This document shows positions 1 through 16,342 of a stretch of DNA of 64,000 bases, in pieces. The notes beneath the pieces were generated by a model that saw only the letters and a program-made list of their open reading frames with translations, ran no database searches and was not told where the DNA came from. Position 1 is the first letter of the stretch. Each line of letters starts with the position of its first letter. Source of the DNA: an uncultured Bacilli bacterium (GTDB taxonomy: Bacteria > Bacillota_I > Bacilli_A > RFN20 > CAG-826); the NCBI GenBank assembly GCA_944368975.1, contig CALVXI010000001.1:117365-181364 (forward strand), read 5' to 3'. Both the position numbers and the translations under genes were made by a program.

Positions 1-948
1 TTCTATGTTATGTATTATCGTGATGATATAGTGAGTCAATATGGTTTTGATTTACCTGATACTTGGCAAGATGTAATTGAGATTTTACCTGAACTTCAAA
101 GAAATGGTTTTAATTATTACATTCCATTATCAACATCAACTGCAAGTAAATCCATTATGACTACTGCCCCATTTATTTATCAATATGGTGGTAATTTATT
201 TAGTGATGATGGAACTCATACAACAATCGATGAAGAAAATAGTTTAAATGCTATTAAATTAATGACTGAACTTTATACTCTTTATGGATTAGAAGATCAA
301 GTTAGTAATTTCTTTAATTCATTTAGAAATGGTAGTTTACCAATCGGTGTTTCGACTTTCGACACTTATGTTAGACTTACGATTGCTGCTCCTGAAATTA
401 GTGGAAAATGGAAAATTGCTTTACCTCCAGGAGTTAAAAATAGCGACGGAGTCGTTGAAAGATGGCAAACAGGTAGTGCCCAATCAATGTGTTTAATTGA
501 TCAAAACGAAGAAGTAAATAATGCTGGTTGGGAATTACTTAAATGGTGGACTTCAGCTGATGTTCAAACTGAGTTTAGTAATCGTTTAACTCTTCTTTAT
601 GGTAAAGGTTATATTTGGAATAGTGCTAATTTAGAAGCATTTAATAATTCAATGGTCTTTACTACTGAAGAAAAGAATGTCATTTTAGGCGAATGGGAGT
701 GGATGAGAGAAATTCCACGTGTTCCTGGATGGTATATGCTTGAAAGAGAATTATCTAATGCTTGGAATGATATTGTTCTTAATGGACAAAATACACGTGC
801 TGTTATTGAAGATGCAGTAACAGTTGTTAATAACGAACTTGAAAGAAAATTGATTGAGTTTGGTTATTTAGATGATGAAGGAAATATTATTACCCCATAT
901 AAAGTAACTACACTTGAATCAATTGAAGCTTTAAAAGAAGGTAAATAA
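1..948 (+). CDS. Sugar ABC transporter extracellular solute-binding protein, C-terminal ~315 aa (5' end outside the window)
   Basis: Frame 1 is open from base 1 (FYVMYYRDD...). The soluble W/Y/N-rich sequence is typical of family-1 sugar-binding proteins. Stop TAA at 946-948 lies 2 nt before the first permease gene. Confidence 0.7.
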
Positions 949-950
949 TT

Positions 951-1955
951 ATGGAAACTACGAATGTTAATGAAACAATTCCACAAAGCAAAAAAGATGC
1001 TGAAAAACGTAGTAAATTAGACTTTTTAAAGCGTTTTAAAAGAAATAATGAGAATAATAATCATATTGGTGGAGCTAAAAGTGCTATTAGCTCTACCATC
1101 TTGATTTTACCTTATATTTTAAGTTTCTTTACCTTTATTGTTTTACCAGTTATTTTAGCTATAATTCTTTCTTTTACAAACTTTAATGCGATGAATTTTC
1201 CAGAATTTGTCGGGTTAACTAACTATATAAACTTATTTACAAATGATGATGTTTTTATGCAAAAAATCATCCCAAATACCATTAAATTTTCATTAATTTG
1301 TGGCCCAGTTGGTTATTTTTTAAGTTTCTTCTTAGCTTGGTTACTTGCTCAAATTCCAAAAGTTCCTCGTACAATATTAGCTCTTATTATATACTCACCT
1401 AGTTTAACAGCTGGTGTTGCTATGCAAGTTGTTTGGATTGCAATATTTAGTGGTGATGCTAATGGTTATTTAAATGCTATTTTACTTGATATGGGTATTA
1501 TTAATGAAGCGATTCAATGGCTTCAAAGTGAAGAATACTTAATGACCATTATGATTATTGTAACTATATGGTCAAGTATGGGTGTTGGATTTTTAGCAAT
1601 GCTTTCTGGTATTTTAAATATCGATAGTGAATTATATGAAGCAGCTTATGTTGATGGACTTAAAAATAGATTCCAAGAAGTAGCTTATGTTACTTTACCA
1701 AGTATGAAGCCACAGTTACTTTTTGGTGCAGTTATGGCGGTTGTTAATACTTTCCAAGCAGGTTCTATTGGTGTTCAACTTTCAGGAAGTAATCCTACAC
1801 CAAATTATGCTGGAAGTTTAATTATTAACCATATTGAAGATTATGGTTATATCCGTTATGAAATGGGATATGCTAGTGCAATTAGCGTCGTACTTTTAAT
1901 CTTTATTTACGTCGTTAGTATTATTATCCGCAAGATTTTGCAAACAAAGGAGTAG
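951..1955 (+). CDS. Sugar ABC transporter permease (MalF/UgpA/LplB type)
   Basis: 334 aa with about 6 hydrophobic helices. EAA-loop-like segment [33 protein letters not shown] lies upstream of the ATG, and the gene is tightly packed behind the SBP gene. Confidence 0.85.
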
Positions 1956-1959
1956 GAAA

Positions 1960-2829
1960 ATGGCTAGTTTTCAAGGTAAAAAGATTAACCCTAAAAAGTT
2001 TCATCCAAGTCAAATTAAGTTTTATATTTTCTTAATTCCTTTTGCAATCTTTATGGCAATCCCAATTGTCTATATGTTTACAACAGCTTTTAAGCCTCAA
2101 GAGGAGTTATTTAAATTCCCTCCATCAATTTTAGTTTATAACCCAACGATGGATAATTTTAAAAGCTTATTTGATTTATTTGAAACAAGTAGCGTTCCTG
2201 CTAGTAGATACTTATTTAACTCAATTTTAGTTACTTTATTAACTGTTGTTATTTCCGTTATTTTAAGTGTTAGTGCAGGTTATGTTTTAAGTAAGAAGCA
2301 TTTTAAAGGTCAAAAATTATTATTTGAAATTAATACTTTAGCCTTAATGTTTGTTCCTATTGCAGTTACTATTCCTCGCTTTATTATTATTGTTAATTTA
2401 GGATTAATTGATAAATTTATTTCGAATATTTTACCAATTATTGCAATGCCTATTGGTTTATTCTTAGTTAAACAATTTATTGATCAAATTCCTGATGCCG
2501 TAATAGAAGCTGCAAGAATTGATGGAGCTGGAGAATTTACTATTTTATTTAGAGTAATTATTCCAATGGTTAAACCAGCTTTAGCAACAATTGCAATTTT
2601 AAGTTTCCAAAGTGCTTGGGGAGCAACTGAAGCTAGTGTTTATTTCTTAAATGATGAGTCTTTAAAAACATTTGCTTATTATATTACAACTTTTGCTAGT
2701 GGTACTAATGCAGCAACTCAAGGAGTAAGTGCTGCTAGTGCTTTAATTATGTTTGTTCCTAATTTGATTATCTTTATTATTATGCAATCAAATGTTATGG
2801 ATACAATGGCTTATTCAGGTATTAAGTAA
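1960..2829 (+). CDS. Sugar ABC transporter permease (MalG/UgpE/LplC type)
   Basis: 289 aa with about 6 TM helices. EAA loop IEAARIDGAGEFTILFRVIIPMVKPAL. AAGGAG RBS just upstream of the ATG at 1960. Confidence 0.85.
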   Translation: MASFQGKKINPKKFHPSQIKFYIFLIPFAIFMAIPIVYMFTTAFKPQEELFKFPPSILVYNPTMDNFKSLFDLFETSSVPASRYLFNSILVTLLTVVISVILSVSAGYVLSKKHFKGQKLLFEINTLALMFVPIAVTIPRFIIIVNLGLIDKFISNILPIIAMPIGLFLVKQFIDQIPDAVIEAARIDGAGEFTILFRVIIPMVKPALATIAILSFQSAWGATEASVYFLNDESLKTFAYYITTFASGTNAATQGVSAASALIMFVPNLIIFIIMQSNVMDTMAYSGIK

Positions 2830-2830
2830 T

Positions 2831-4888
2831 ATGAAAAAGAGATATTATGTTTTAATATTTTCAATATTTTTAATGATCTTAACTTTCTCTTTTTCAGCAA
2901 GTATTGCTTATGCCTTACCTTATGAAACAGAGACTAGTGGACCTAATGGAGAACTTGTTCCAACTCAACAAGTTTATGAACCATCTAGAAAAATAGTTAT
3001 CCCTTATAATATGCCAGTAAATGAAGACGAATCTAGCACCTTTAATGCTCCTGAAGACATGTTCTATGATGAAGAAACTAATTCTATCTTTATTGCAGAT
3101 ACTGGTAATAAAAGAGTAGTTAGATTAAATTATGATGGAACTGATGCTGATTTTATATATTATGGAAAAGAAGATGAAGCATTAATTGATCCTCGTGGAG
3201 TTAGTTGTAATGATGATTATTTAGTTGTCGCTGATCGTCAACTTGAGAAAGTTATAGTTTATGATAAAGAAACTCTAGCTTATGTTGATGAAATCACTAG
3301 ACCTGATAGCACATTAATTGGTGCAACTTCGACATTTGTTCCAACTAAAGTATGTGTTGATAATCGTGGCAATCTATATATAGTTAGTGAAGGTAACACT
3401 AAAGGCGTTATGCAACTTAATTTAGAAGGCGAATTTGCTGGTTATATTGGTGCAAATGAAACTCCATCTAGCTTCTTAAGTTGGATTCAAGATTTATTTG
3501 GAATTAATAATGATGATGGTTTATTAGCTCAAGGACAAAGTGTTAGTAATATTGCTCTTGATTCTAATGGGCTAGTTTATACAGTTACTAACCAAAGCGC
3601 AACTGCTGCAGTTAAAAAGCTTAATACTACTGGTGTTAGTATTATGTCTCCTTCAATGAACTTTGCTGAAACTACTCAAGTTTGTATTGATAGTAGTGGA
3701 AATATTTATAGCGTTCAAAATGATGGCTATATAACTATTTTTGATAGCTATGGAAGTTTATTATTTAGATTTGGTGGTGTTAATAATGAAGAAGTTTTAG
3801 GTGCTTTAAAAAATCCTATTGCTGTTAATGTTACATCAAATCATGAACTTTTAGTTCTAGATCGTGAACAAAATATGGTCATCTTATATACTCCAACTCA
3901 TTTTGCCAATTTAGTTTTTGATGCAGTTGATTATTATAAAGATGGTTTATATTTAGAAGGGGAAGATGCTTGGTTAGAAGTTTTAAAATATAACAATAAA
4001 TTTATTTTAGCTTATAAGGCACTTGCTAGAGCTAATATGAAAAAAGGTAATTATGATCTTGCTTTAGAACAATTTAAACTTGCTGAAGATAAACAAGGTT
4101 ATAGTGAAGCTTATTGGCAAATTAGAGATACTTGGCTTAGAAGTAACCTTATTTGGATTATTGTTCCAATTTTAGTTTTATGTATTGGAATATATGTAGT
4201 TAAATTAGTAGACCGTAAAAAACCAATGGTTTTTGCTTCTATTAAAAGTGGTTTTAATAGAGCAAACCAAACACATACTTTAGGTGATTTTACTTATATT
4301 TTCCATTATATGAGAAGGCCTCGTGATGCGACTTATGAGATGAAATATAAAGGTAAAACAAGTGTTATTGGTGCTACTATTTTATATTTATTCTTTGTTG
4401 TCATTCAAATTTTACAAGTATATTTAAAAGGTTATTTATTTAATAATACGAACGTATATGATTCTAATGCTTTAGAGATCATCTTACTATCAACTTTACC
4501 TTTAATTTTACTTGTTATATGCAATTATTTTGTTAGTAATGTTACAGATGGTGAAGGTAAGTTTAAACAAGTTTATATTGGAATGATTTATTCTTTAAGT
4601 CCTTACTTAGTATTGTCTATTCCAATTTTCTTAATTTCTAATGTTTTAACTTATAATGAACAAGTTATTTATGATGTATTAATTTGGTTTACCTATATTT
4701 GGTCAGGAATTAATATCTTTTTAACAATAATGGAACTTCATGATTTCACATTCTGGAAAGCAGTTAAAAATATATTACTTACGATTGTGTGCTTTATTTT
4801 AGTTATAGCATTTGCCTTTATTCTTTATATGTTAGCTTATCAACTTGTAGGCTACATTATTAGTGTATGTCAGGAGTTAGCCTTATGA
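2831..4888 (+). CDS. Exported NHL-repeat beta-propeller / TPR-like / Yip1-like multi-pass membrane fusion protein, function unknown
   Basis: Start moved to ATG 2831 (MKKRYYVLIFSIFLMILTFSFSASIAYA signal peptide). Six NHL-like blades, e.g. SIFIADTGNKRVVRLNYDG, YLVVADRQLEKVIVYD, NLYIVSEGNTKGVMQLNLEG, ELLVLDREQNMVILY. A TPR-like stretch (NMKKGNYDLALEQFKLAEDK) is followed by about 6 TM helices. Confidence 0.6.
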   Translation: MKKRYYVLIFSIFLMILTFSFSASIAYALPYETETSGPNGELVPTQQVYEPSRKIVIPYNMPVNEDESSTFNAPEDMFYDEETNSIFIADTGNKRVVRLNYDGTDADFIYYGKEDEALIDPRGVSCNDDYLVVADRQLEKVIVYDKETLAYVDEITRPDSTLIGATSTFVPTKVCVDNRGNLYIVSEGNTKGVMQLNLEGEFAGYIGANETPSSFLSWIQDLFGINNDDGLLAQGQSVSNIALDSNGLVYTVTNQSATAAVKKLNTTGVSIMSPSMNFAETTQVCIDSSGNIYSVQNDGYITIFDSYGSLLFRFGGVNNEEVLGALKNPIAVNVTSNHELLVLDREQNMVILYTPTHFANLVFDAVDYYKDGLYLEGEDAWLEVLKYNNKFILAYKALARANMKKGNYDLALEQFKLAEDKQGYSEAYWQIRDTWLRSNLIWIIVPILVLCIGIYVVKLVDRKKPMVFASIKSGFNRANQTHTLGDFTYIFHYMRRPRDATYEMKYKGKTSVIGATILYLFFVVIQILQVYLKGYLFNNTNVYDSNALEIILLSTLPLILLVICNYFVSNVTDGEGKFKQVYIGMIYSLSPYLVLSIPIFLISNVLTYNEQVIYDVLIWFTYIWSGINIFLTIMELHDFTFWKAVKNILLTIVCFILVIAFAFILYMLAYQLVGYIISVCQELAL

Positions 4889-7053
4889 AATTTCTTACAA
4901 AATTAATTATAACAATCGTTGGATTAACTTCCGTCAGTGTCCCAATTGCAATGGGTGGAACTTATAAACTTGAAAGTAATCAAAATAGTGAAACATTAAA
5001 TGAAGAAACTAATGAAGTTTATACAGTAACTAAAGGTGATACAACTTTAAAAGTAAATAAAGACACTTTATATTTTGAAGTAACTAAAGGTAATTCTACT
5101 TGGAATAGTGGTAAAGTTCTTGAAACTGATGAAGATGTCACAAATAGTCGTAGAGCTTTTATTGAATCGCCTTTAACAGTTTACTTTTTAACTTCTAATG
5201 GTGGAGAAAGTAGTTTTAGTATTTTTGATAGTCGTCATGAAGATACAACTCGTGTCACATTCCATGAAGAAAGTGAAGGTTTTAGTGCTGATTTAAGAAT
5301 TAGAGATGGTAATAATGCTAATTTAAGTTTAGAGATTAATTTAACTCTTAATGTAAAAATCACTGATGATGGCTTAAATATTTATATTACTGATCTAGAA
5401 GAAAATCTAGAAGCAACTAATAGATTATCAAGACTTGTTATTTATCCTGGATTTGATGCAAGTTATGGCTTAGTTGATGGATATGCTTTAATCCCTGATG
5501 GAAGTGGAGCAATCATTAATTATAATGAACCTACTAATGCTCGTAGTGCTCTTTCTTTAACAACTTATGATAGTGATATCGGAGTAAGAAATAATGGAAG
5601 AACATCAACTACTAGTAATGTTTTAACTTTACCTATGTATGCTGTTAATAATTTAAATAGCAGTTATATGGTAACTATTGAAAGTGGTAGTGAATATAGT
5701 TCATTAAATAGTAAGGTTGCTACGATGAGTGATAACTATAACTTAAATTATTTTAGTTTTACTTATCGAGAAATTTTCTACCGTTATTTTGGTATAAGTG
5801 ATTCTACTCGTCGACCAGAACCACAAGAAAACGCTAATCAATTTTTACCAAATTTAACTTATCATCTTTATGATGATAAGTTGACTTATAGTGAATTTGC
5901 TAAAGAATATCAAGACTATTTATTAACTAATAATTTACTTAATAAAGCTAGTGAACTTGAAAGTAGTTTAAGACTTGAATTTTTAATGAGTGAATCTAAA
6001 CCTAGCATGTTTGGAAGAGAAGTTATTGCTATGACTGATACTAACTTTGTTAAAAAAGTTTGCGAAGAACTTAAAGATGAAGTTAATGTTGATGTTAGTT
6101 TACTTGGCGCAAGTAAAGGTGGTTATACTAATTCTTATCCTAATAATTTCCCTCTTGAAAAGAAAACTGGAAGTGAAGGAGATTATAAAGATTTAATTAG
6201 TTATTTAAATAGTTTTGGAATAGAAACTAATTTTATAGTTGATTATATCCGTGCTTTTAGTGATAGCTCAATTAGTGATAAAGATCTTGCGATGAATATG
6301 TCAGAAAAATATATTGAAAGTAACGATATTCATCCTGGAAGTGAATTAATCTTTAATCATCTAACATTAAATAAAACTAAAGATAAGATTAATGGAGATT
6401 TAGGTTTAATTAATGAACTTAATACTAGTGGATTAGATTTTACGTCAATTGGTAATACTTTATATTCAAGTTATCATAATCAAGTATTTTCTAGAGCTGA
6501 AGCTATTAAAGCTTATCAAAATATATTAGGCTCTTTAGATTTAAATGTTAATTTAAGAAAACCTAATTTATACATGTATAATTACTTTAATGATTATTTA
6601 GAAACGCCAATTAGTAATAGTGGATTTTTAATTGAAACAAGTAGTATCCCATTTATATCAATGGTTTTAAGTGGATATAAAAATATGTATAGTAGTGCTT
6701 TAAACTTAAATTATTTAGGAACTAATCAAATCTTAAATTTAATCGATTATAACGTTAATCCAACATATTTATTGACTAAAGAAAGTGCTATTGAATTATT
6801 CCAAACAAGTAGTGAATATATTTTCTCTAGTATGTATAGTGATTGGAAAGAAGAAATTATTAATTCTATTACTTTAGTTAATGATATTTTAAAAGAAGTT
6901 AGTGGTGCTAATTTTATAAATAGAGAAGAAATTAGTAATAATGTTTATAAGAATACCTATAGTAATAATAAAGAAATCATCGTTAATTATTCTGATAATG
7001 ATTTTACTTATAACGGTATTACTATTGAGTCTAGTAGTGCGGAGGTATTTTAA
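4885..7053 (+). CDS. Large (~722 aa) membrane-anchored or secreted protein of unknown function (possibly DUF5696-like)
   Basis: ATG 4885 overlaps the upstream TGA (ATGA), with AGGAG at 4872-4876. N-terminal hydrophobic anchor KLIITIVGLTSVSVPIAMGG. The rest is a soluble S/T/N-rich sequence with no catalytic motif I recognise. The DUF5696 resemblance is from memory only. Confidence 0.45.
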   Translation: MKFLTKLIITIVGLTSVSVPIAMGGTYKLESNQNSETLNEETNEVYTVTKGDTTLKVNKDTLYFEVTKGNSTWNSGKVLETDEDVTNSRRAFIESPLTVYFLTSNGGESSFSIFDSRHEDTTRVTFHEESEGFSADLRIRDGNNANLSLEINLTLNVKITDDGLNIYITDLEENLEATNRLSRLVIYPGFDASYGLVDGYALIPDGSGAIINYNEPTNARSALSLTTYDSDIGVRNNGRTSTTSNVLTLPMYAVNNLNSSYMVTIESGSEYSSLNSKVATMSDNYNLNYFSFTYREIFYRYFGISDSTRRPEPQENANQFLPNLTYHLYDDKLTYSEFAKEYQDYLLTNNLLNKASELESSLRLEFLMSESKPSMFGREVIAMTDTNFVKKVCEELKDEVNVDVSLLGASKGGYTNSYPNNFPLEKKTGSEGDYKDLISYLNSFGIETNFIVDYIRAFSDSSISDKDLAMNMSEKYIESNDIHPGSELIFNHLTLNKTKDKINGDLGLINELNTSGLDFTSIGNTLYSSYHNQVFSRAEAIKAYQNILGSLDLNVNLRKPNLYMYNYFNDYLETPISNSGFLIETSSIPFISMVLSGYKNMYSSALNLNYLGTNQILNLIDYNVNPTYLLTKESAIELFQTSSEYIFSSMYSDWKEEIINSITLVNDILKEVSGANFINREEISNNVYKNTYSNNKEIIVNYSDNDFTYNGITIESSSAEVF

Positions 7054-7054
7054 G

Positions 7055-8557
7055 ATGATTAAATTTAAAGATATATATTTTCAATATCAATCTAATTATC
7101 CTAAAACTTTAATTAATTTTATTTTAAAGAAAGATAAGAATCATTCTTTAAATAAAAAGAGTATCAATGATAATTTAAAAAAGATTATAAAGTTTGAAGA
7201 TACTTCCTATTTAAATGATATTTTCACTAATGAAAATAAAGCTCATATGAAAGAGATTTTAAAAGAAGAAATTGAAAGAATTTCTTTTGATTATAATAAA
7301 ATCCTTTTAGAACTCGACTCTTTTTATGAAAAATCATTTAATAATGCTTCATTTAATCAAAAAGAAATTACTAAAGAATTAAATAAATTTGATAAAGAAT
7401 TTCAAAAATATAATTTACCATTTATTTACTATAATATTTCTTTTATCTTAGATTTTAAAAGAACTATCAATAATGAACTTAAGTTATTTTATGAAAAAGA
7501 GAAGTCTGGAGAATATGTTGATTTAAATGAAGTTAATAAAAGAATGAATAAATATTTTATTAACTTAAAAGAAACTATTAAAGGCTTAGAGGAAAGCTTA
7601 AGTATTGATATTGATACTTATTTAAATAATTTAATTACTCGAATTAATGAAGAATATAAAATTATTTTTGAAAATAAAGATAACTTTAAAATTACAATTC
7701 CTAATTGGACTAAAGGATTATTATTTTGCTTACCTTGGATCATTGGTTTTTGTATTTTCACTGTTTATCCTTTAATTCAAACATTCGTTTTCTCATTTAA
7801 TTATGTTGTTCCAACAAGTGATGGCTTTAGAATGGATGGAGTAGGTTTTACTAATTATATAAATCTATTTACTAAAGACACTGATTTTATAAATGCAATC
7901 GGTGATTATTTAGTTGAAATGATTATCTACGTCCCTGTTATTACAGTTGTTAGTTTATTACTTGCTTTATTATTAAATACTAAAGTTAAAGGAACAGGAT
8001 TTTTTAGAACAATTTTCTTCTTACCTGTAATTATTACTAGTGGTCCAGTTTTACAAATCTTAATGGAACAAGGTGTTACTTCTATTCCTGGACTTAGTGA
8101 AATTATTAATTTAGAAGAAATTAGTCAAGGTTTACCAAGATTCCTTCAAACAGCATTAGATATTATAACTAATGAATTTATCGTTATTTTATGGTTCTGT
8201 GGTATTCAAATTTTAGTCTTTATGACTGGTTTACAAAAGATCGATAAAGGAGTTTATGAAGCTGCGAATATTGATGGAGCTGGTAAGTGGGAGAAGTTCT
8301 GGAAAGTTACTTTACCTGCTATAAATCCAACAATTGTTATTAATGTTGTTTTCACGGTTGTCATGCAATCAATCTTTGCTTTAAATCCAATCATTTTAAA
8401 GATTCAACAAGATATGAATGATACTAGTGGTGAAAGAGGTTATGGTTATTCAAGTGCGATGGCCTTTACTTACTTCTTAATCATGATTATCGTGTTAGTT
8501 ATTTTTGTTCTTATCTTTAAGAGTAAGAACAAAAAAGTTAAGAAAGTGGGGGCATAG
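7055..8557 (+). CDS. Sugar ABC permease (MalF/UgpA type) with ~245-aa N-terminal soluble K/N/E-rich extension
   Basis: Start at ATG 7055 (GGAGG at 7038-7042), 1 nt after the upstream stop. The first TM helix appears only near aa 250 (LLFCLPWIIGFCIFTVYPLI). EAA loop VYEAANIDGAGKWEKFWKVTLPAINP. Confidence 0.8.
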   Translation: MIKFKDIYFQYQSNYPKTLINFILKKDKNHSLNKKSINDNLKKIIKFEDTSYLNDIFTNENKAHMKEILKEEIERISFDYNKILLELDSFYEKSFNNASFNQKEITKELNKFDKEFQKYNLPFIYYNISFILDFKRTINNELKLFYEKEKSGEYVDLNEVNKRMNKYFINLKETIKGLEESLSIDIDTYLNNLITRINEEYKIIFENKDNFKITIPNWTKGLLFCLPWIIGFCIFTVYPLIQTFVFSFNYVVPTSDGFRMDGVGFTNYINLFTKDTDFINAIGDYLVEMIIYVPVITVVSLLLALLLNTKVKGTGFFRTIFFLPVIITSGPVLQILMEQGVTSIPGLSEIINLEEISQGLPRFLQTALDIITNEFIVILWFCGIQILVFMTGLQKIDKGVYEAANIDGAGKWEKFWKVTLPAINPTIVINVVFTVVMQSIFALNPIILKIQQDMNDTSGERGYGYSSAMAFTYFLIMIIVLVIFVLIFKSKNKKVKKVGA

Positions 8558-8559
8558 TT

Positions 8560-10275
8560 ATGAAAAAGTTTTTTAATGATTTATTAAATAAAATTAAATA
8601 TGTCTTTACTCCTATTTCTAAAGAGACCAAAAAAGAAATAAAAGAAATTAGAATTAAAGAGAAAACTACTAAAAACCTTGCAAAAACCCGATTAAATTTA
8701 ATTATTAAAGAAATTAAAGAATCTAGTAAAGGTAATTTAGAAGCTTTAAAATTCGATATTAAAGGTTTTAAAAATGTCATTCATAACACGAAAGTTTCTA
8801 GTAATAATTTTTACTTTGAACACTTTATAAAAGAAGACTTTAATCGTTTAGGACTTAGTTCAAGTTTAGTAATATCTCATGATTCGAAAATTAATCTTAA
8901 AGAAGAATTAATTTCTAAGTTAAGTGAATTTAATAATAGTAATTTATCAAAATTTAAAGCTTATTTTGAAATGATTAAGATTAATAAATTAATTAATAAA
9001 TCTATAAATTATTTATTAGAAGATTATAAAACTAAGTCTAATTTCTTTATCATTAAAAATATCTTTAAAAAAGATGGATTAGAAGTTATTAAATCATACT
9101 TTAATGAAGTTAAAGAGTATTCTTTAACTTACATAAAGAATGATAATTTTAAATTAGATAAGGATTTAGAATTAACAATAACTAACATTAATAATTTAAT
9201 TAATAATGCATCAATTAAATTAAAAGAATATCCATATCACTTTAAAGAAACAAAAGTTTATCTTTCTTTAGTTAATTCTTTTAATAAAAAGTTTAAAAAA
9301 CTTAAACCTATTGTTACTAAAGAAGTTACTAGATTTTATGATCTATTTAAAAAAGAAAACTTTAACCGTGAAACTATTAAAACTTATTTATTTGGTAGTG
9401 AAGAACGTCGAGGAATTTTAACAAATATTGTTGTTTATGCTTTATTAATTTTATTCGGTTTTGTTTATCTTTATCCAATGCTTTATATGCTTTCTTATAG
9501 TTTTATGAGTAGTAGTGATTTAGTTAACCCTAATGTTACTTATATTCCTACTCATTTAGAAGGACAAAACTATATCGATGCATTTACAGTATTAAATTAT
9601 TGGTCAACATTAGGAGAAAGTTTACTTGTTAGTATTCTTCCAGCAATTTGTCAAACAGTATGTTGTTCACTTGTTGCTTATGGACTAGCTAGATATGAAT
9701 TTAAAGGAAAGAAAATTTTATTTGGTTTAATTATTTTCACCTTTTTAATTCCATCTTGTTTAACAATGTTACCAACTATTAGTTTATATGCCTCAATGGG
9801 CATAACTGGCAATGTTTTAAGTTATATCTTACCAGCTTTATTTGGTCAAGGGCTTAAAAGTGCCGTCTTTATCTTAATTTTTTATCAATACTTTAAAGGT
9901 ATTCCTCAATCAATTACTGAAGCTGCTGAAATTGATGGTGCAAATACATTTGTCGTATTTTTAAGAATAGCAATTCCAAGTGCTAAAAGTGGAATTCTTT
10001 TATCAATCTTACTTAGTGTAGTTTGGTATTATAACGAAACTGTTTTAGCTAGTGCTTTCTTTGGAAGTGAGATTTCTACTTTACCATTAGCCTTAGAAAA
10101 CTTTAAATCCTCATTTGATAATATTTATCAAGATGCTGCTAATGGAAAAAGTATTAATGAAGCTATTTATATGGCTGGTACAATGCTTAACATTTTACCA
10201 TTACTTATTCTTTACTTCTTTACACAAAAATACTTCGTTCAAGGTGTTGATAAAGCAGGAATTACTGGAGAATAA
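8560..10275 (+). CDS. Sugar ABC permease (MalG/UgpE type) with ~285-aa N-terminal soluble K/N-rich extension
   Basis: 571 aa. The first TM helix is near aa 287 (ILTNIVVYALLILFGFVYLYP). EAA loop ITEAAEIDGANTFVVFLRIAIPSAK. The N-terminal third has no hydrophobic segment. Confidence 0.8.
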   Translation: MKKFFNDLLNKIKYVFTPISKETKKEIKEIRIKEKTTKNLAKTRLNLIIKEIKESSKGNLEALKFDIKGFKNVIHNTKVSSNNFYFEHFIKEDFNRLGLSSSLVISHDSKINLKEELISKLSEFNNSNLSKFKAYFEMIKINKLINKSINYLLEDYKTKSNFFIIKNIFKKDGLEVIKSYFNEVKEYSLTYIKNDNFKLDKDLELTITNINNLINNASIKLKEYPYHFKETKVYLSLVNSFNKKFKKLKPIVTKEVTRFYDLFKKENFNRETIKTYLFGSEERRGILTNIVVYALLILFGFVYLYPMLYMLSYSFMSSSDLVNPNVTYIPTHLEGQNYIDAFTVLNYWSTLGESLLVSILPAICQTVCCSLVAYGLARYEFKGKKILFGLIIFTFLIPSCLTMLPTISLYASMGITGNVLSYILPALFGQGLKSAVFILIFYQYFKGIPQSITEAAEIDGANTFVVFLRIAIPSAKSGILLSILLSVVWYYNETVLASAFFGSEISTLPLALENFKSSFDNIYQDAANGKSINEAIYMAGTMLNILPLLILYFFTQKYFVQGVDKAGITGE

Positions 10276-10277
10276 AA

Positions 10278-11615
10278 ATGAAGAAAAATGTTTGTTTATT
10301 ATTAGGAACTCTAAGTTTATTAACTATTTCATCATGTGATCCATCAAAAGGTAGCATTAATGAAAATTTAATAAAGGATGAGATTGAAAAAACTTATAAC
10401 TATTTTATGGCTACTACTAATTTAAAAGAGAATAGTAATGGCTATGGTTTAGTTCAAGACCGTTTTACAAATAAAAATAACTCATCAATTGCTGCTACTG
10501 GTTTTGCTTTAGCTGCTTATCCAATTTATGTTGAAGAAGGACTTATGACAAAAGAAGAAGCAAATGAAATTGTTACTAAGTCGCTTGAAACAATTTTACG
10601 AATTCAAAATGATGAAAGAGTAAGTTACGAAGGCTGTATTTCTCATTTTGTTAACATGAATACAGGCTTAAGAGTTGGTGGAAGCGAAATTTCAACTATC
10701 GATACAGCAATTTTAGTTAGTGGAGCTATTGCTAGTGGTGCTTATTTTGAAGGTGAAGCTGAAACTCTTGCTAATACTATTTGGAGTAATGTTGATTATA
10801 ATGCTTTCTCAATTGAAAGAAATGGTAAGAAATATATTTCAATGGGAACTGATAATCCTGCAAGCTTTGAAACAATTAAACAACTTGGACCTTGGGATTA
10901 TTATGCTGAACAATTAATGATTTATATTCTTGGAGCTGGAAATCCTAATGAAGAACATCGTATTAGTAAAGAATATTATGAAGATATAACTAAAAACATT
11001 GGTGAATTTGAAGGACATAGTCATATTTATTCTTGGTATGGTTCAATTTTTACTTATCAATTCTCACATGCTTTCTATGACTTCCATACATATGAAGATA
11101 GTGATGGAATTAATTGGCACGAAAATAGTGTTGAAGCAACTTTAACAAGTAAAGCATATAGTGAGTATTATGCTAAAGCTTATCGCACTTTCGAAGAAGG
11201 TGGTTGGGGATTAACAGCATGTGATACTCCTACTGGATATAGTGGATTACTTGGTACCCCACCAAGAGGATGGAATGATGTTGGAAGTAACTATCTAGAT
11301 ATAGAAGGAACAGTTGCTCCATGTGGTGCAATTGGTAGTTTCATTTTTACTCCAGAAGAATCTTATGAAGCTTTAGAGTTATTTAGAAGTTACAAAGCAT
11401 TAAATCATCCAGATTTTGGTTTATATGATTCATATAATTTAGATTATCGTGGAATTGAATGGTATTGCCGTGATTTTGTTGGTATTGATAAAGGTATATC
11501 AGTCTTAATGATGGGTAATTATCTTCATGATAATTTAATACAAGAACTCGTTATGTCTAATCCATACGTAATTGAGGGATTTACAAATAATGGATTTAGT
11601 AAAGTGAGTGAATAA
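10278..11615 (+). CDS. Lipoprotein, putative (alpha/alpha)6 glycoside hydrolase of the glucoamylase-like / GH144-like (DUF3131) type
   Basis: Lipobox LLTISSC. Segments SSIAATGFALAAY, DYYAEQLMIYILGAGNPNEEHRI and GGWGLTACDTPTGYSG resemble, from memory, the 'putative glucoamylase' domain of endo-beta-1,2-glucanases. Not verified by search. Confidence 0.5.
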   Translation: MKKNVCLLLGTLSLLTISSCDPSKGSINENLIKDEIEKTYNYFMATTNLKENSNGYGLVQDRFTNKNNSSIAATGFALAAYPIYVEEGLMTKEEANEIVTKSLETILRIQNDERVSYEGCISHFVNMNTGLRVGGSEISTIDTAILVSGAIASGAYFEGEAETLANTIWSNVDYNAFSIERNGKKYISMGTDNPASFETIKQLGPWDYYAEQLMIYILGAGNPNEEHRISKEYYEDITKNIGEFEGHSHIYSWYGSIFTYQFSHAFYDFHTYEDSDGINWHENSVEATLTSKAYSEYYAKAYRTFEEGGWGLTACDTPTGYSGLLGTPPRGWNDVGSNYLDIEGTVAPCGAIGSFIFTPEESYEALELFRSYKALNHPDFGLYDSYNLDYRGIEWYCRDFVGIDKGISVLMMGNYLHDNLIQELVMSNPYVIEGFTNNGFSKVSE

Positions 11616-11617
11616 AC

Positions 11618-12814
11618 ATGGAATTAAACAAAGTGAATGCATATAAAGAATTAGAGTTATCAGTAAAATTCTTTTTAGACACATTTTCAAAAGAAGATAT
11701 AAGTTATGGTCTAGTGCCTGATACATATTTAACGACTAAATCAAACATTTCTTCGATAGCGGGAACTGGTTATTTATTTAGTGCTTTAGTGATTGGAAGT
11801 GAAATAAATTTAATCAGTAAAAATAAAGCTAAAGAGATCGCTATTAAAGCTCTTAAAACTATTAAAAATTTAAAAAGAGTTAAAGGATGGTATTATCATT
11901 TTTACGATATAAATAATGGTCAAAATACTCTTCATAGCGAAGTTAGCAATATTGATTCATGTTTATTATTTTTAGGAATTCTTACTTGTGGAGAATATTT
12001 TAAAGGAGAAGTTGAAAAACTTGCAAAAGAGATATTTTTCCTTGCAGATTTCAACTATTTTTTAGATAAATCTACAAATATTATGAATATGGCAATCGAT
12101 TATAAAGGGAATATGTATGCTAAATGGGATTATTTAGCTGAACAACTTATGATCTATATTTTAGGTGTTAATACTTTAAATAAAGATTACCGTATTCCAA
12201 AAGAAACTTTCTATAGCTTTAAGAAAAAATTAATGAGTTATGAAGAACTTAATTTCTATGCTTCTTGGAATGGTTCTTTATTTACTTATCAATATACTCA
12301 AACTTATGTTGATTTTAGAAATACAATTGATAATGAAGGTATTAATTGGTTTAATAATTCTAAATTAGCAACTATAGCAAGTTATCGTTATAGTAAAAGT
12401 TTAAAAGATAAATATCGTTCAATTAATGAATTAAGTTGGGGATTAACTGCTTCAGCTAGTAAAAAGGGCTATAGTGGAAATTATTCAAGTATTCCACTAG
12501 GAGATAAAGTAAATACTGTTGATGGAACAATGGCTCCTACTGGAGCAATTAGTTCAATAGTATTTCTTGAAAAAGAATCTCTTGATGCTATTAATCATTA
12601 TTATTCATTACCTTATTTAGTTGGAAAATATGGATTATATGATGCTTATAATGATGATTTAAATTTTGTTGCAGATTACTATATCTCAATTGATAAAGGA
12701 AATGCGATGGTTATGTTAAGTAATTACTTTAATGAAACAATCTGGAAATATTTCAATCAAATTGATTTTATTAAAGAAGCTAAGGAAATAATTGGAATTC
12801 GAAAGGAGAATTAG
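11618..12814 (+). CDS. Cytoplasmic paralogue of the preceding glucoamylase-like / GH144-like protein
   Basis: No signal peptide. Shares blocks with the 10278-11615 product: SSIAGTGYLFSAL, DYLAEQLMIYILGVN, LFTYQY, GINWF/GINWH, SWGLTASASKKGYSG, APTGAISS/APCGAIGS, GLYDAYN/GLYDSYN. Confidence 0.5.
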   Translation: MELNKVNAYKELELSVKFFLDTFSKEDISYGLVPDTYLTTKSNISSIAGTGYLFSALVIGSEINLISKNKAKEIAIKALKTIKNLKRVKGWYYHFYDINNGQNTLHSEVSNIDSCLLFLGILTCGEYFKGEVEKLAKEIFFLADFNYFLDKSTNIMNMAIDYKGNMYAKWDYLAEQLMIYILGVNTLNKDYRIPKETFYSFKKKLMSYEELNFYASWNGSLFTYQYTQTYVDFRNTIDNEGINWFNNSKLATIASYRYSKSLKDKYRSINELSWGLTASASKKGYSGNYSSIPLGDKVNTVDGTMAPTGAISSIVFLEKESLDAINHYYSLPYLVGKYGLYDAYNDDLNFVADYYISIDKGNAMVMLSNYFNETIWKYFNQIDFIKEAKEIIGIRKEN

Positions 12815-12816
12815 TT

Positions 12817-13938
12817 ATGGGGAGAATTTCATTACAACATATTTATAAAATTTACCCAGGTGCCACTGAACCTGCGGTAAAAGATTTTACTTTGGAAATT
12901 CACGATAAGGAATTCGTAGTTTTCGTTGGTCCTTCTGGATGTGGTAAGTCTACTACATTAAGAATGATTGCAGGACTTGAAGAAATCTCTAAAGGTGATC
13001 TTTATATCGATGATCGTAAAGTCAATAAAGTTGAACCTAAAGATCGTGATATCGCAATGGTTTTCCAAAATTATGCACTTTATCCATATATGACAGTATT
13101 TCAAAATATGTCATTTGGACTTCGTTTAAGAAAAGTTCCTAAAAAGGAAATTGAACAAAAAGTTCTTAAAGCTGCAAAAATTTTAGGAATTGAAGAATAT
13201 CTTGACCGTAAACCTAAAGCTCTTAGTGGTGGTCAAAGACAAAGAGTTGCTTTAGGTAGAGCTATCGTTCGTGAACCAAAAGTTTTCTTACTTGACGAAC
13301 CTTTAAGTAACCTTGATGCTAAGATGCGTGCTCAAATGAGAACTGAAATCATTAAGCTTCATAACGAATTACAAACAACATTCGTCTATGTTACTCACGA
13401 TCAAACAGAAGCTATGACAATGGGTACAAGAATCGTCGTTATGAAAGATGGTGTTATTCAACAAGTTGATACACCAGATAACTTATATGATTATCCAACT
13501 AATAAATTCGTTGCTGGTTTTATTGGAACACCACAAATGAACTTTATCGATGTAACTTTAATTAAAGAAAATGAAAATACTTATGCTACATTTGGTAAAA
13601 ATAAAGTTAAATTAGATGAAGAAACAGTTAAGAGAATTAAGATTAGTGATTATAACAATCATCAATTTGTCTTAGGTATTAGGCCTGAAGATATTTATCT
13701 TGAAGATGAAAAAGCAACAAGAGAAAATGGTTTAGTTGAAGCAAAAGTTAAAGTCTTGGAAAAACTTGGAAATGAAATACTAGTTTACACAAATTGCAGT
13801 GGTAAAGATGGTGAACTTGTATTTAGAAGTAAACCAAGAACAAATATTTATGAAGATGATGTCATTTCATTAAGATTTGACACCAAACAAATACATTTAT
13901 TTGATTTTAATACTGAAGAAACAATTTTAACTAGATAG
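12817..13938 (+). CDS. msmX: Multiple-sugar ABC transporter ATP-binding protein (MsmX/MalK type)
   Basis: Walker A GPSGCGKST, signature LSGGQRQRVALGRA, Walker B VFLLDEPLSNLD, H-loop YVTHDQ. C-terminal TOBE-like domain ends ISLRFDTKQIHLFD. AAGGAG RBS. Confidence 0.9.
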   Translation: MGRISLQHIYKIYPGATEPAVKDFTLEIHDKEFVVFVGPSGCGKSTTLRMIAGLEEISKGDLYIDDRKVNKVEPKDRDIAMVFQNYALYPYMTVFQNMSFGLRLRKVPKKEIEQKVLKAAKILGIEEYLDRKPKALSGGQRQRVALGRAIVREPKVFLLDEPLSNLDAKMRAQMRTEIIKLHNELQTTFVYVTHDQTEAMTMGTRIVVMKDGVIQQVDTPDNLYDYPTNKFVAGFIGTPQMNFIDVTLIKENENTYATFGKNKVKLDEETVKRIKISDYNNHQFVLGIRPEDIYLEDEKATRENGLVEAKVKVLEKLGNEILVYTNCSGKDGELVFRSKPRTNIYEDDVISLRFDTKQIHLFDFNTEETILTR

Positions 13939-13948
13939 GGAGGGTTTT

Positions 13949-16342
13949 ATGAAAAAACGTAGTAGTTTATTATTGTTAAGTGTCATCGGTGTATCCATGC
14001 TTTTAGCAGGATGTAATCCTGGTGGCGGTGAAGGTGGAGATGGTGGTAATAAAGAACCAGGCGACACCTATAGTTTAATGAAATTCTGGGCAGGAAATGC
14101 CTCAGAAGAAATTTATTCTGTTGAAGAAAATGAAACTTCAACCGTTATTACTTATACAGATGCAGTTAGTGAAGGAAATGGCGGCTGGGAATTCATTGCT
14201 AGATCATTTGCATATGATACTCTTTATATTGACTATTTCGATAAATATGAAAAATTAACTTTTACTGGTAACCTAGAAACTACAAGTGGTACTAATGAAG
14301 TTATGATTAAGTTCGAAGGTGCTGGTTCTGGTAATTATGAAAAGAGATTTACTTTCGAAGAAGAAACTAGAACATATGAACTTCCATTAAACTTTATTAG
14401 TGATTGGTCACAAGTTTCTCAAATTACCTTATTTGTTAATAGAGGTGCTAATAGTAAAGAAAATGGAAGTGGTGTCATGACATTTACTGATATTAGCCTA
14501 TCAACCGAACCTGTTAATCCTGAAAATAATATTGCTCCTGATCAAGAAGATAAACCTCAAGAAGCTAATATTTATGCTGGTGAAAAAGATAAGTTTAATG
14601 TTATGAAAAGTTGGGGCTATGACAATACTGGAACTATTAAAACAACCGAAAATAGTGATGGAACATTTAAATTTGATTATGATAAAGATGCTTCACCACA
14701 AACATATGCTTATGCTAGTGCAAAAGTTGAAGGCGATTTAAGTATATCAGGATTTAAGAGACTCCATTTTGCTATTAATGGTACTGCTGGTCAACAATTA
14801 ATGGTTAAATTCCAAACCCATGACAATGCAAAAGCTAAAGAATTAACTATTGAATTAACTGGTGAAGATCAAACTGTCGATATTGATATTACTCAAATCA
14901 TTACCGCAACTTATGAAGCTGACGGAGTCACATATACTTCATTTATTGCAGGTATATTCCCACTTCCAGGTGCTACTAGTGGAAAAGGTAGTGTCACTTT
15001 AAAAGAATGTTATATGGATACAACTGAAGCAGTTATAATCGAAACACCTGTTAATACTCCTGAAGGTGATTACTTATATCTTACAAAACCTTATAAAAAT
15101 GATAGCATCTATGACTATTCTCTTGAAGGTAATAAGATGACAATCAATTATGAATATCCTGAAACAGCTACATTACCAACATGGGCTTCACTTATGTTTG
15201 ATATTGATGGTGAAAATTTAACACAATTTACAAAATTAACTGGTACAATTACTTCAACTGTTGATGTCCAAGTACTTTTAAAGAGCTATGATAATAACGA
15301 AAAAGGACAAACATTCATTGACTTAAAGGCTAATGAACAATATAAAGTTGATGTTGAAATTGATTCTAACATTATTAATAAGGATAAAGATTTTATCATT
15401 ATTATTGGAACTACTGAAACAAGTGCTAAAAAAGGTACTGTTGTATTTGAAAATTTACGTTATGAAAAAGATACTTCAATTCCTGTTATTTATGATAATG
15501 AAAGAGAAGGAGATGAACTTAAAATTACTAAATTTTCAGTAATCCCAGAACAATTTACTTTAACTAATGGTGAAAATTCTTTTGATGTTGACTATAAAAG
15601 AACTCAATTAGATTGGAATGGTTTAGAAGCAACAATTGGTGGTGAGAACTTAACTGAATTAAGAAAATTAACTGGTACTATTACAGCAACTGTTAATACG
15701 GATATAATTATTAAACAAACTGCTGAATCAGCACCTGCTAATGAAATTAAAAGAACATTAACTGCTAATACTCCACTTGTTCTTGATGAAGTGATTCCTG
15801 AAGAATTAATGGTTGAAGGTGCTAAGTTCATCATTATGATTGCTACACCTAATAATTCTGGTAGTGCTTTAGAAGGAAAAGTTACATTTACAAATTTAAA
15901 ATTTGTTAAATATGAAGAACCAGCTCCTGTAGTTGAAGAATTAGCAATTACTAGTTTTACTGATTATAGTGAAACAATCTATAGCTATACTTATACTGAA
16001 GGTTCTAAAGAATTAAAAATTGCCTTTGATAAAACAACCGATCCAACTGGATATCCAGGATTACAAGTTAAACTAAATGCAGAAAATTTAGTAGAATTTA
16101 AAAGAGTTACTGGAAAAGTAATTAGTGATGTTGATCAAAAAATTATCATTAAAAATTTGGGCTATGAAGAGCGTATAGATTTAAAAGCAGGAGTAGAAAC
16201 AGCAATTGATTTTGTTAGTCAAAAAGAGGACGTAAATGCAATGTTTGTTATTATGTTAGGTGTCCCTGAAGATCCTTATAAAGATGCTATTAAAGGTAAT
16301 GTAACATTTACTGACCTTAAAGTTACAAAAGTTAGTGCATAA
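13949..16342 (+). CDS. 797-aa surface lipoprotein with five tandem beta-sandwich-like (CBM-like) modules, putative glycan-capture protein
   Basis: Lipobox MLLAGC followed by a Gly-rich linker NPGGGEGGDGG. Five ~130-150-aa modules each end in G-x-V-T/V-F-x-[DN]-L: GVMTFTDISL, GSVTLKECYM, GTVVFENLRY, GKVTFTNLKF, GNVTFTDLKV. An ENL[TV].F.[KR][LV]TG motif recurs in modules 3-5. Confidence 0.6.
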   Translation: MKKRSSLLLLSVIGVSMLLAGCNPGGGEGGDGGNKEPGDTYSLMKFWAGNASEEIYSVEENETSTVITYTDAVSEGNGGWEFIARSFAYDTLYIDYFDKYEKLTFTGNLETTSGTNEVMIKFEGAGSGNYEKRFTFEEETRTYELPLNFISDWSQVSQITLFVNRGANSKENGSGVMTFTDISLSTEPVNPENNIAPDQEDKPQEANIYAGEKDKFNVMKSWGYDNTGTIKTTENSDGTFKFDYDKDASPQTYAYASAKVEGDLSISGFKRLHFAINGTAGQQLMVKFQTHDNAKAKELTIELTGEDQTVDIDITQIITATYEADGVTYTSFIAGIFPLPGATSGKGSVTLKECYMDTTEAVIIETPVNTPEGDYLYLTKPYKNDSIYDYSLEGNKMTINYEYPETATLPTWASLMFDIDGENLTQFTKLTGTITSTVDVQVLLKSYDNNEKGQTFIDLKANEQYKVDVEIDSNIINKDKDFIIIIGTTETSAKKGTVVFENLRYEKDTSIPVIYDNEREGDELKITKFSVIPEQFTLTNGENSFDVDYKRTQLDWNGLEATIGGENLTELRKLTGTITATVNTDIIIKQTAESAPANEIKRTLTANTPLVLDEVIPEELMVEGAKFIIMIATPNNSGSALEGKVTFTNLKFVKYEEPAPVVEELAITSFTDYSETIYSYTYTEGSKELKIAFDKTTDPTGYPGLQVKLNAENLVEFKRVTGKVISDVDQKIIIKNLGYEERIDLKAGVETAIDFVSQKEDVNAMFVIMLGVPEDPYKDAIKGNVTFTDLKVTKVSA

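Follow-up and report, generated by a model that had tools for sequence, protein, structure and literature searches.

The locus analyzed here, a pair of adjacent genes in 64,000 nucleotides of DNA from an uncultured, AT-rich gut bacterium of the Bacilli (the whole stretch is called the window below), raises the question of why both membrane subunits of one predicted ATP-binding cassette (ABC) importer begin with a long soluble stretch before the first transmembrane helix (TM1). The two genes, B1 and B2, form permease pair B of a plus-strand operon (Table 1). Our results suggest that their N-terminal extensions are very probably two unrelated, previously undescribed, and co-inherited cytoplasmic helical domains, carried by both membrane subunits of a single CUT1 importer.

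The membrane cores were assigned by profile and structure searches. BPD_transp_1 was the only Pfam domain detected and covered the C-terminal halves of the proteins, at residues 281–488 of B1 (42.4 bits) and residues 373–564 of B2 (56.6 bits), with a Pfam gathering cut-off of 26.4. AlphaFold2 was run on full-length B1 and B2 alignments, and the core helices were modelled with a block-mean predicted local distance difference test (pLDDT) score of mostly 65–89, some loops being lower. Foldseek, used with the full-length B1 model only, matched the core to SugA, MalF, MalG, and AlgM at probability 1.00 (top matches: 7cad_A, 8ja7_A, and MalF/MalG chains; SugA of LpqY-SugABC and AlgM1/M2); the matches were confined to the membrane core, and none fell in the extension. 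In NCBIfam, the B1 core was nearest to UgpA/GlcT/MalF and the B2 core to UgpE/GlcU/MalG, with best scores of 44 and 66 bits, which fall short of the equivalog cut-offs of 297–360 for UgpA/UgpE, MalF/MalG, and GlcT/GlcU. The partners of a CUT1 operon, a solute-binding protein (SBP; 3′ tail only) and an ATPase, are present, and SBP genes were also found in the related loci L001, L108, L112, and L113. As judged from sequence, B1 and B2 supply both membrane subunits of a sugar ABC importer of the CUT1 type (type I) and are generic members of this class, without a named permease or substrate assignment.

The extensions were delimited by a Kyte-Doolittle scan with a 19-residue window, which placed the first hydrophobic helix at about residue 219 of B1 and about residue 284 of B2. 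An earlier note, made from the letters of the window and its open reading frames, had placed them near residues 250 and 287; the B2 position agrees with ours, and the B1 figure was about 30 residues too high. A first helix at residue ~257 of B1 would fit only a non-conserved alternative ATG at 6941. The extensions are 218 aa long in B1, not 245–250 aa, and about 285 aa long in B2. As the note had stated, they lack hydrophobic segments (no 19-residue window in either has a mean hydropathy above 0.5) and are rich in K/N/E/I/F, to which the composition count adds L. Its statement that ordinary permeases start TM1 early was borne out by pair A of the same operon, in which TM1 begins at residues 44 and 18. 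No other permease in the genome holding the window has an open frame longer than about 330 aa.

Both annotated starts are real as judged from sequence, and each subunit is, by its reading frame and its relatives, one fused polypeptide. The B1 start is preceded by a strong Shine-Dalgarno (SD) sequence, and an equivalent GAGGT precedes the B1 start in L001. Inside the window extensions, in-frame ATG, GTG, or TTG triplets occur only at codons 65 and 164 of B1 and at codon 138 of B2, and an SD sequence precedes none of them. In L001, the 294 extension codons of B2 include no ATG, GTG, or TTG. A TM1-containing permease can therefore be made only from the annotated starts. The chance of finding 218 or 285 stop-free codons at the local guanine-plus-cytosine (GC) content of 17–19% is 9e-12 or 1e-14, respectively, and the other two frames over the extensions contain 19–72 stops. 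In relatives, B1 either overlaps the DUF5696 stop or lies immediately next to it, and both frames are full length in 13–15 strain sequence variants. The corresponding protein clusters have 22 and 29 members, and those listed are full length except on very short contigs. The earlier note had raised internal starts near TM1, or separate small upstream genes, as grounds for giving up the fusion; we found no usable internal start near TM1, and the fusion is kept in relatives. An upstream B1 start at ATG 6941 was rejected, since in L001 a stop 30 nt ahead of the start interrupts this frame and the strong SD sequence precedes 7055. Translation of 6941–7054 would put 38 very hydrophobic residues, MFIRIPIVIIKKSSLIILIMILLITVLLLSLVVRRYFK, in front of B1; this segment shares its DNA with the end of the DUF5696 gene, which is read in a different frame, and the open stretch looks like an AT-rich out-of-frame artefact.

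Each extension defines a small family of its own. Word-based searches with the extensions returned only near-identical proteins and one 45%-identical protein, encoded in L001, whose operon consists of the same twelve genes as that of the window. A hidden Markov model of the B1 extension gave six matches among 1.84 billion representative proteins. P0039 (493 aa) is a complete match from locus L108, within the same operon, and P0044 is an N-terminally incomplete copy fused to a whole permease. The earlier note had suggested looking for the N-terminal regions as separate genes; no convincing free-standing B1 domain was found among the profile matches. The candidates considered were P0043, which runs off a contig end; P0041, which sits on a chimeric contig; P0040 (L109), whose stop lies 6 nt before the contig end; and P0042 (L110, 510–1402), in which a single in-frame TAG occurs at codon 185 and the frame then continues into the permease, with no ATG, the only start codon looked for here, between the TAG and the first transmembrane helix. 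The TAG in L110 may reflect a sequencing error, a pseudogene, or a natural split. The B2-extension profile returned 20 protein clusters of 437–448 aa and two fragments; loci L112 and L113, from this set, have the same operon with a B1 of 490–492 aa. Genome G411 has a further copy on its contig C50 (L106, 10.8 kb), with a GC content of 52%.

The eight sequences of the B1-domain family are 22–48% identical, and their alignment is nearly gapless, with TM1 at residues 212–222 and invariant residues in KYEDVSYLKD, KHKSDEYMDM, and I.FEN. The B2 domain is about 150–157 aa long in at least 20 protein clusters, and only the window lineage has a form of 285–297 aa. Its conserved blocks are EERFDVASLKNNIHN.K and KHLKPVIAYEKINIITMFRKENRNKETFKMVL.GNQERKG, and many columns of the short form are at least 90% conserved. 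The B2 domain of the window and L001 has gained about 35 residues at the N-terminus and about 100 residues as internal insertions (~135 aa in total). The extensions had no match in NCBIfam; the best hits in Pfam (E-value of 0.016, below the cut-off) and in a profile search of PDB sequences (E-value of 0.085) were not significant. Both families are rare; they amount to about two dozen protein clusters, which come exclusively from uncultured organisms.

The two extensions do not resemble each other, in line with the earlier note. Neither BLASTP nor hhalign, applied to 2-sequence profiles and to the 8- and 23-sequence profiles, gave a significant match; E-values were 0.04–0.1 (0.04 for BLASTP), and the hhalign probability was below 1%. 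A weak, non-significant likeness (E-value of 0.1) was seen between B1 7145–7231, which ends in the KYEDVSYL motif, and the B2 motif RFD..LKNN..N.KV..D..YL at 8752–8796. An internal duplication of the B1 domain was considered and rejected, its halves (7193–7240 versus 7499–7525) being only weakly alike (hhalign E-value of 0.025, probability 2%, non-significant). BLASTP self-comparison revealed no internal repeats in either extension, and Tandem Repeats Finder detected only short low-complexity DNA repeats.

In the AlphaFold2 model, the B1 domain consists of 10 helices of 7–26 residues each, joined by loops, with a block-mean pLDDT of mostly about 60–80 that drops over the first residues and immediately ahead of TM1. 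As modelled, the domain resembles a bundle of helices more than a long coiled coil. The earlier description of the extensions as helical or coiled-coil holds for the helical part in both models, with poor confidence in B2; a long coiled coil is less likely for B1, given the short, bundled helices of its model.

Subunits of type I importers have cytoplasmic N-termini. The extensions contain no signal peptide or anchor, and basic residues flank TM1 on the extension side. Together with the lack of hydrophobic segments and the N-in topology of type I importers, these features support the cytoplasmic location proposed in the earlier note, which we infer from topology rules and homologous structures. 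The note had gone on to say that the extensions sit where the ATPase docks, which overstates the case. Type I importers receive the ATPase on their coupling (EAA) helices, located between core TM3 and TM4, and have the N-terminal helix at the periphery, where it wraps the partner subunit (PMC3971661). The domains should therefore flank the ATPase dimer, and this position is more likely, by analogy with these structures, than occupation of the docking site. The net charge ranges from +1 to −11 in B1 domains (neutral to acidic) and from −2 to +22 in B2 domains (mostly basic), which weakly hints at pairing of the B1 and B2 domains or, for B2, at a position against the membrane.

The distribution of the domains was examined in about 80 orthologous cassettes. 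Both domains occur together in each of the six loci examined that are complete or nearly so, with an unchanged gene order and over a GC range of 27–52%; the full 12-gene order is visible only in loci that reach far enough. The B1 domain accompanies the B2 domain wherever both genes are readable. A maximum-likelihood tree of B2 cores groups the 23 sequences with the extension in a single clade (100/99 support), in which the window and L001 are sister to 21 short-form proteins, indicating that the B2 domain arose once. The next (sister) clade, from Candidatus Coproplasma, Christensenellaceae, and rabbit-gut Clostridia metagenome-assembled genomes (MAGs), shows an identical gene order over the extent of its loci, and its B1 proteins have only 16–44 residues before TM1. 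In the remaining cassettes (about 65, from Bacillaceae, Paenibacillaceae, Lachnospiraceae, Thermotogota, and others), the median N-terminal length is 16 aa (B1) and 41 aa (B2), the values also obtained over the ~80 cassettes. Normal, short N-termini were found in orthologues from about 75 other loci and also in those from two further families of the order to which the window belongs. Among GTDB species representatives, the operon was found in 1 of 60 in the window's genus and 1 of 58 in the genus of G411, and the GTDB family and order samples gave 2 of 401 each. This patchy spread and the range of GC contents point to transfer of the whole operon. L106 lies on a short contig with 52% GC, and none of 57 other species of its genus has the operon; it may reflect operon transfer or a mis-binned contig.

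Two further B1 orthologues carry additions of other kinds. The B1 protein of L004 (2489–3667, minus strand; genome G027, from a different family of the same order) is normal at the N-terminus and carries a K/R/E-rich charged C-terminal tail of about 70 aa. That of L091 (3841–4974), from a Caldilineae MAG, has about 100 residues before its first membrane helix, another independent extension.

Ratios of nonsynonymous to synonymous substitution (dN/dS) were calculated for two pairs of loci. Between L108 and L112, they were 0.12–0.22 for the extensions and 0.04–0.07 for the cores, and the cores gave 0.09–0.17 between the window and L001; dS was near saturation throughout, so these ratios are rough. 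Within species, 3.7% of the columns of the B1 extension and 2.1% of those of the B1 core were variable. Both domains are under purifying selection in the clade as a whole.

The features of the locus are listed in Table 1.

Table 1. Features of pair B and of the surrounding operon, with positions in the window
Feature	Position	Strand	Basis or remark
B1 (permease pair B), 500 aa	7055-8557	+	
Shine-Dalgarno GGAGGT, 8 nt before ATG 7055 (B1 start)	7041..7046	+	
B1 N-terminal cytoplasmic helical domain (predicted), 218 aa	7055..7708	+	New family, constant length ~212-222 aa
Top-conserved B1-domain motif FEDTSYLNDIFTNENK	7193..7240	+	Family consensus KYEDVSYLKD..ENK
Second B1-domain motif EKSGEYVDL	7499..7525	+	Family consensus KHKSDEYMDM
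B1 membrane core, UgpA/MalF/SugA-type six-helix transmembrane domain (TMD)	7709..8557	+	Pfam, hydropathy, Foldseek
B1 EAA coupling loop YEAANIDGAGKWEKFWKVTLP	8255-8317	+	Motif EAA..DGA........P
B2 (permease pair B), 571 aa	8560-10275	+	
B2 N-terminal cytoplasmic extension (predicted), 285 aa, net charge +22	8560..9414	+	Expanded form of ~155-aa family
B2-domain motif FDIKGFKNVIHNTKV	8752..8796	+	Family consensus RFDVASLKNNIHN.K
B2 conserved basic juxtamembrane segment KPIVTKE..FKKENFNRETIKTYLFGSEERRG	9304..9414	+	
B2 membrane core, UgpE/MalG-type six-helix TMD	9415..10275	+	Pfam, hydropathy
B2 EAA coupling loop TEAAEIDGANTFVVFLRIAIP	9916-9978	+	Motif EAA..DGA........P
Operon	1-16342	+	Open reading frame calls and Pfam
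SBP, 3′ tail only	1-948	+	
Permease pair A	951-1955 and 1960-2829	+	
NHL/Yip1 membrane protein, then DUF5696 protein	Between pair A and pair B	+	
GH144-like 'Glycoamylase' paralogue, lipoprotein	Directly after B2	+	
GH144-like 'Glycoamylase' paralogue, signal-less (cytoplasmic)	11618-12814	+	
MalK/MsmX-type ATPase, sole ATPase of the operon	12817-13938	+	ABC_tran, OB_MalK, TOBE_2
Lipoprotein, 797 aa	After the ATPase	+	

The genome holding the window comprises 1.3 Mb in 21 contigs, and the window has a GC content of 27% and uses the standard bacterial code. Genetic code 4 was tried and rejected; it left the gene frames of the operon unchanged relative to code 11, save for 2792–4888, which became longer at both ends. 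No mention of DUF5696 was found in the literature. The ATPase of the operon presumably drives pair B and is a candidate partner for the extensions. Only a 29-sequence clade that includes the window combines a MalK-type ATPase gene inside the operon with a second (cytoplasmic) GH144-like gene and a large lipoprotein gene, and each of the three features is confined to it; the loci behind this comparison were the window (12817–16342), L014–L019, L068, L001, L108, L112, and L113. In the other cassettes (about 65), no ATPase gene was found up to about 4.5 kb downstream of B2.

We propose that B1 and B2 are each translated from the annotated start as one polypeptide and that each carries its own α-helical cytoplasmic N-terminal domain, the two being mutually unrelated. 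The pair would have been inherited together since the single origin of the B2 domain, partly through transfer of the operon between gut Bacillota. Most likely, the domains would make up an accessory module in the cytoplasm, beside the MalK/MsmX-type ATPase dimer, that tunes or tethers the ATPase on the channel. Such a regulatory or scaffolding element would reside on the membrane subunits and not on the ATPase. In the window lineage, the added ~135 aa of the B2 domain may be little more than a flexible basic tail. This explanation as a whole, from the description of the domains to their accessory role, has roughly an even chance of being correct; the specific regulatory or tethering role, a tentative suggestion, is less likely than not, and interaction of the domains with each other or with the ATPase, like any regulatory function, is putative. 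A more specific version, in which the acidic B1 and basic B2 domains pair into a module that decides how the ATPase is shared between the two channels of the 'twin' cassette, or that gates ATPase closure on a cytoplasmic signal, seems unlikely; no description of a module of this kind was found.

Several observations weigh against an accessory module. Neither domain has a recognizable known fold or motif, and the B2 extension was modelled as all-helical, with helices of up to 41 residues, at a pLDDT below 50, too low to establish its fold. In the short-form loci, the B1 and B2 charges complement each other only weakly. At the protein level, the extensions evolve 2–3 times faster than the cores. 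Between the window and L001, dN/dS reaches 0.35–0.73 in the B1 extension and 0.58–0.86 in the B2 extension, and within species 13% of the columns of the B2 extension are variable versus 2.1% in the B2 core. From these figures, the B1 domain of the window genome appears still moderately constrained and much of the expanded B2 extension close to neutral. The B2 extensions of the sister clade, 35 to about 260 aa long, are partly disordered and non-homologous to that of the window; those of L014–L018 (121 to about 260 aa) combine acidic, E/A/T/P-rich low-complexity sequence with repeated W/F/K-rich amphipathic helices. L019, of the same clade, has no extension, and the part of the operon that its locus covers, the ATPase included, is arranged in the same order. 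The lack of an extension in L019 and the unrelated extensions of its sister-clade relatives imply that extensions are not needed for such an operon to work. The B2 N-terminus seems to be a hot spot of lineage-specific cytoplasmic additions.

According to the main rival explanation, the extensions are tolerated, largely functionless tails: the peripheral N-terminus accepts insertions, low-complexity helical sequence has built up under AT mutational pressure, and it persists only because its loss would bring no gain. It is supported by the relaxed dN/dS in the window lineage, the variability of the B2 extension within species and its poorly conserved gain, the unrelated additions in L014–L018, L091, and L004, and the extension-less L019. 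The DNA of the extensions (7055–7708 and 8560–9414) has a GC content of 17–19% versus 27% for the window, which fits relaxed constraint under AT mutational pressure. However, functionless tails would hardly account for the constant length and invariant residues of a B1 domain whose eight sequences are so divergent, for its survival in a locus with 52% GC, for the strongly conserved columns of the short-form B2 domain, for the low dN/dS (0.12–0.22) of the short-form clade, or for the co-occurrence of both domains in six of six loci; we regard this explanation as rather unlikely. The domains might instead dock a cytoplasmic enzyme, such as the signal-less GH144-like hydrolase, at the channel exit, where imported oligosaccharide would be cleaved in a transport metabolon. 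The operon does have two GH144-like paralogues directly after B2, one a lipoprotein and one cytoplasmic, and the second paralogue occurs in every extension-bearing locus that reaches that far, but it is also present in the sister clade, including the extension-less L019, and docking of this kind is improbable. The least probable explanation, and a highly improbable one, is that the long N-termini are annotation artefacts, with translation starting near TM1 or with separate small genes upstream. The premature stops in L109 and L110 could be read in this way; against it stand the absence of SD-bearing starts between the annotated starts and TM1, the start-less B2 extension of L001, the continuation of the L110 frame into the permease, the full-length strain variants, the fused proteins in all loci on long contigs, and the conservation of the N-terminal residues themselves.

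If the accessory-module explanation is right, the pair would represent a different route of control or organization of type I importers, whose post-translational control, in the cases treated in two reviews, is exerted through domains of the ATPase subunits (PMC3971661, PMC10710835). The idea is directly testable in a natural series with the same gene order, which comprises cassettes with no extension, the ~155-aa form, the ~285-aa form, and the unrelated disordered type of the sister clade. Two new small domain families become available for annotation, and the N-termini of reduced gut Bacillota, even when very AT-rich and seemingly of low complexity, are shown to be real conserved domains in some cases. 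In practical terms the finding carries moderate weight, and the families are rare.

Like SugA/SugB of the mycobacterial trehalose importer LpqY-SugABC, MalF/MalG of Escherichia coli MalFGK2, and UgpA/UgpE, B1 and B2 have a BPD_transp_1 six-helix core with an EAA loop and are a heterodimeric pair encoded by adjacent genes, with a MalK/MsmX-type ATPase with OB/TOBE regulatory domains. Known CUT1 subunits have their first helix within a few tens of residues, and MalF instead adds membrane helices and a periplasmic loop; B1 and B2 differ in the 218 and ~285 soluble helical residues that precede TM1 on the predicted cytoplasmic side. Unlike fusions of substrate-binding domains to the TMD (GlnPQ/OpuA), they have no signal or anchor helix before TM1, and their extensions have no match to an SBP or to other Pfam or NCBIfam families.

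Extra cytoplasmic domains near the ATPase dimer are otherwise known as C-terminal regulatory domains of the ATPase, as in MalK with EIIAGlc/MalT, MetN C2, ModC, and the CBS domains of OpuA. Such ATPase-borne domains gate ATPase closure (PMC3971661, PMC10710835); they sit on the ATPase (PMC3971661), and no membrane-subunit case is given in PMC10710835. Cytoplasmic N-terminal domains on membrane subunits are not described in these reviews of type I importers (PMC3971661, PMC10710835). The domains of MalK, MetN, ModC, and OpuA are parts of the ATPase polypeptide with defined folds (OB/TOBE or ACT-like in the MalK/MetN/ModC type) and ligands, whereas those of B1 and B2 are N-terminal on the membrane subunits, all-helical in the models, and without a known ligand; the window ATPase keeps its own normal OB_MalK/TOBE_2 domains. 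L014–L018 of the sister clade share with the window the gene order as far as the loci reach, the in-operon ATPase, a B2 core that is 60–62% identical, and a long B2 N-terminal extension, but their B2 extensions are non-homologous and their B1 N-termini short.

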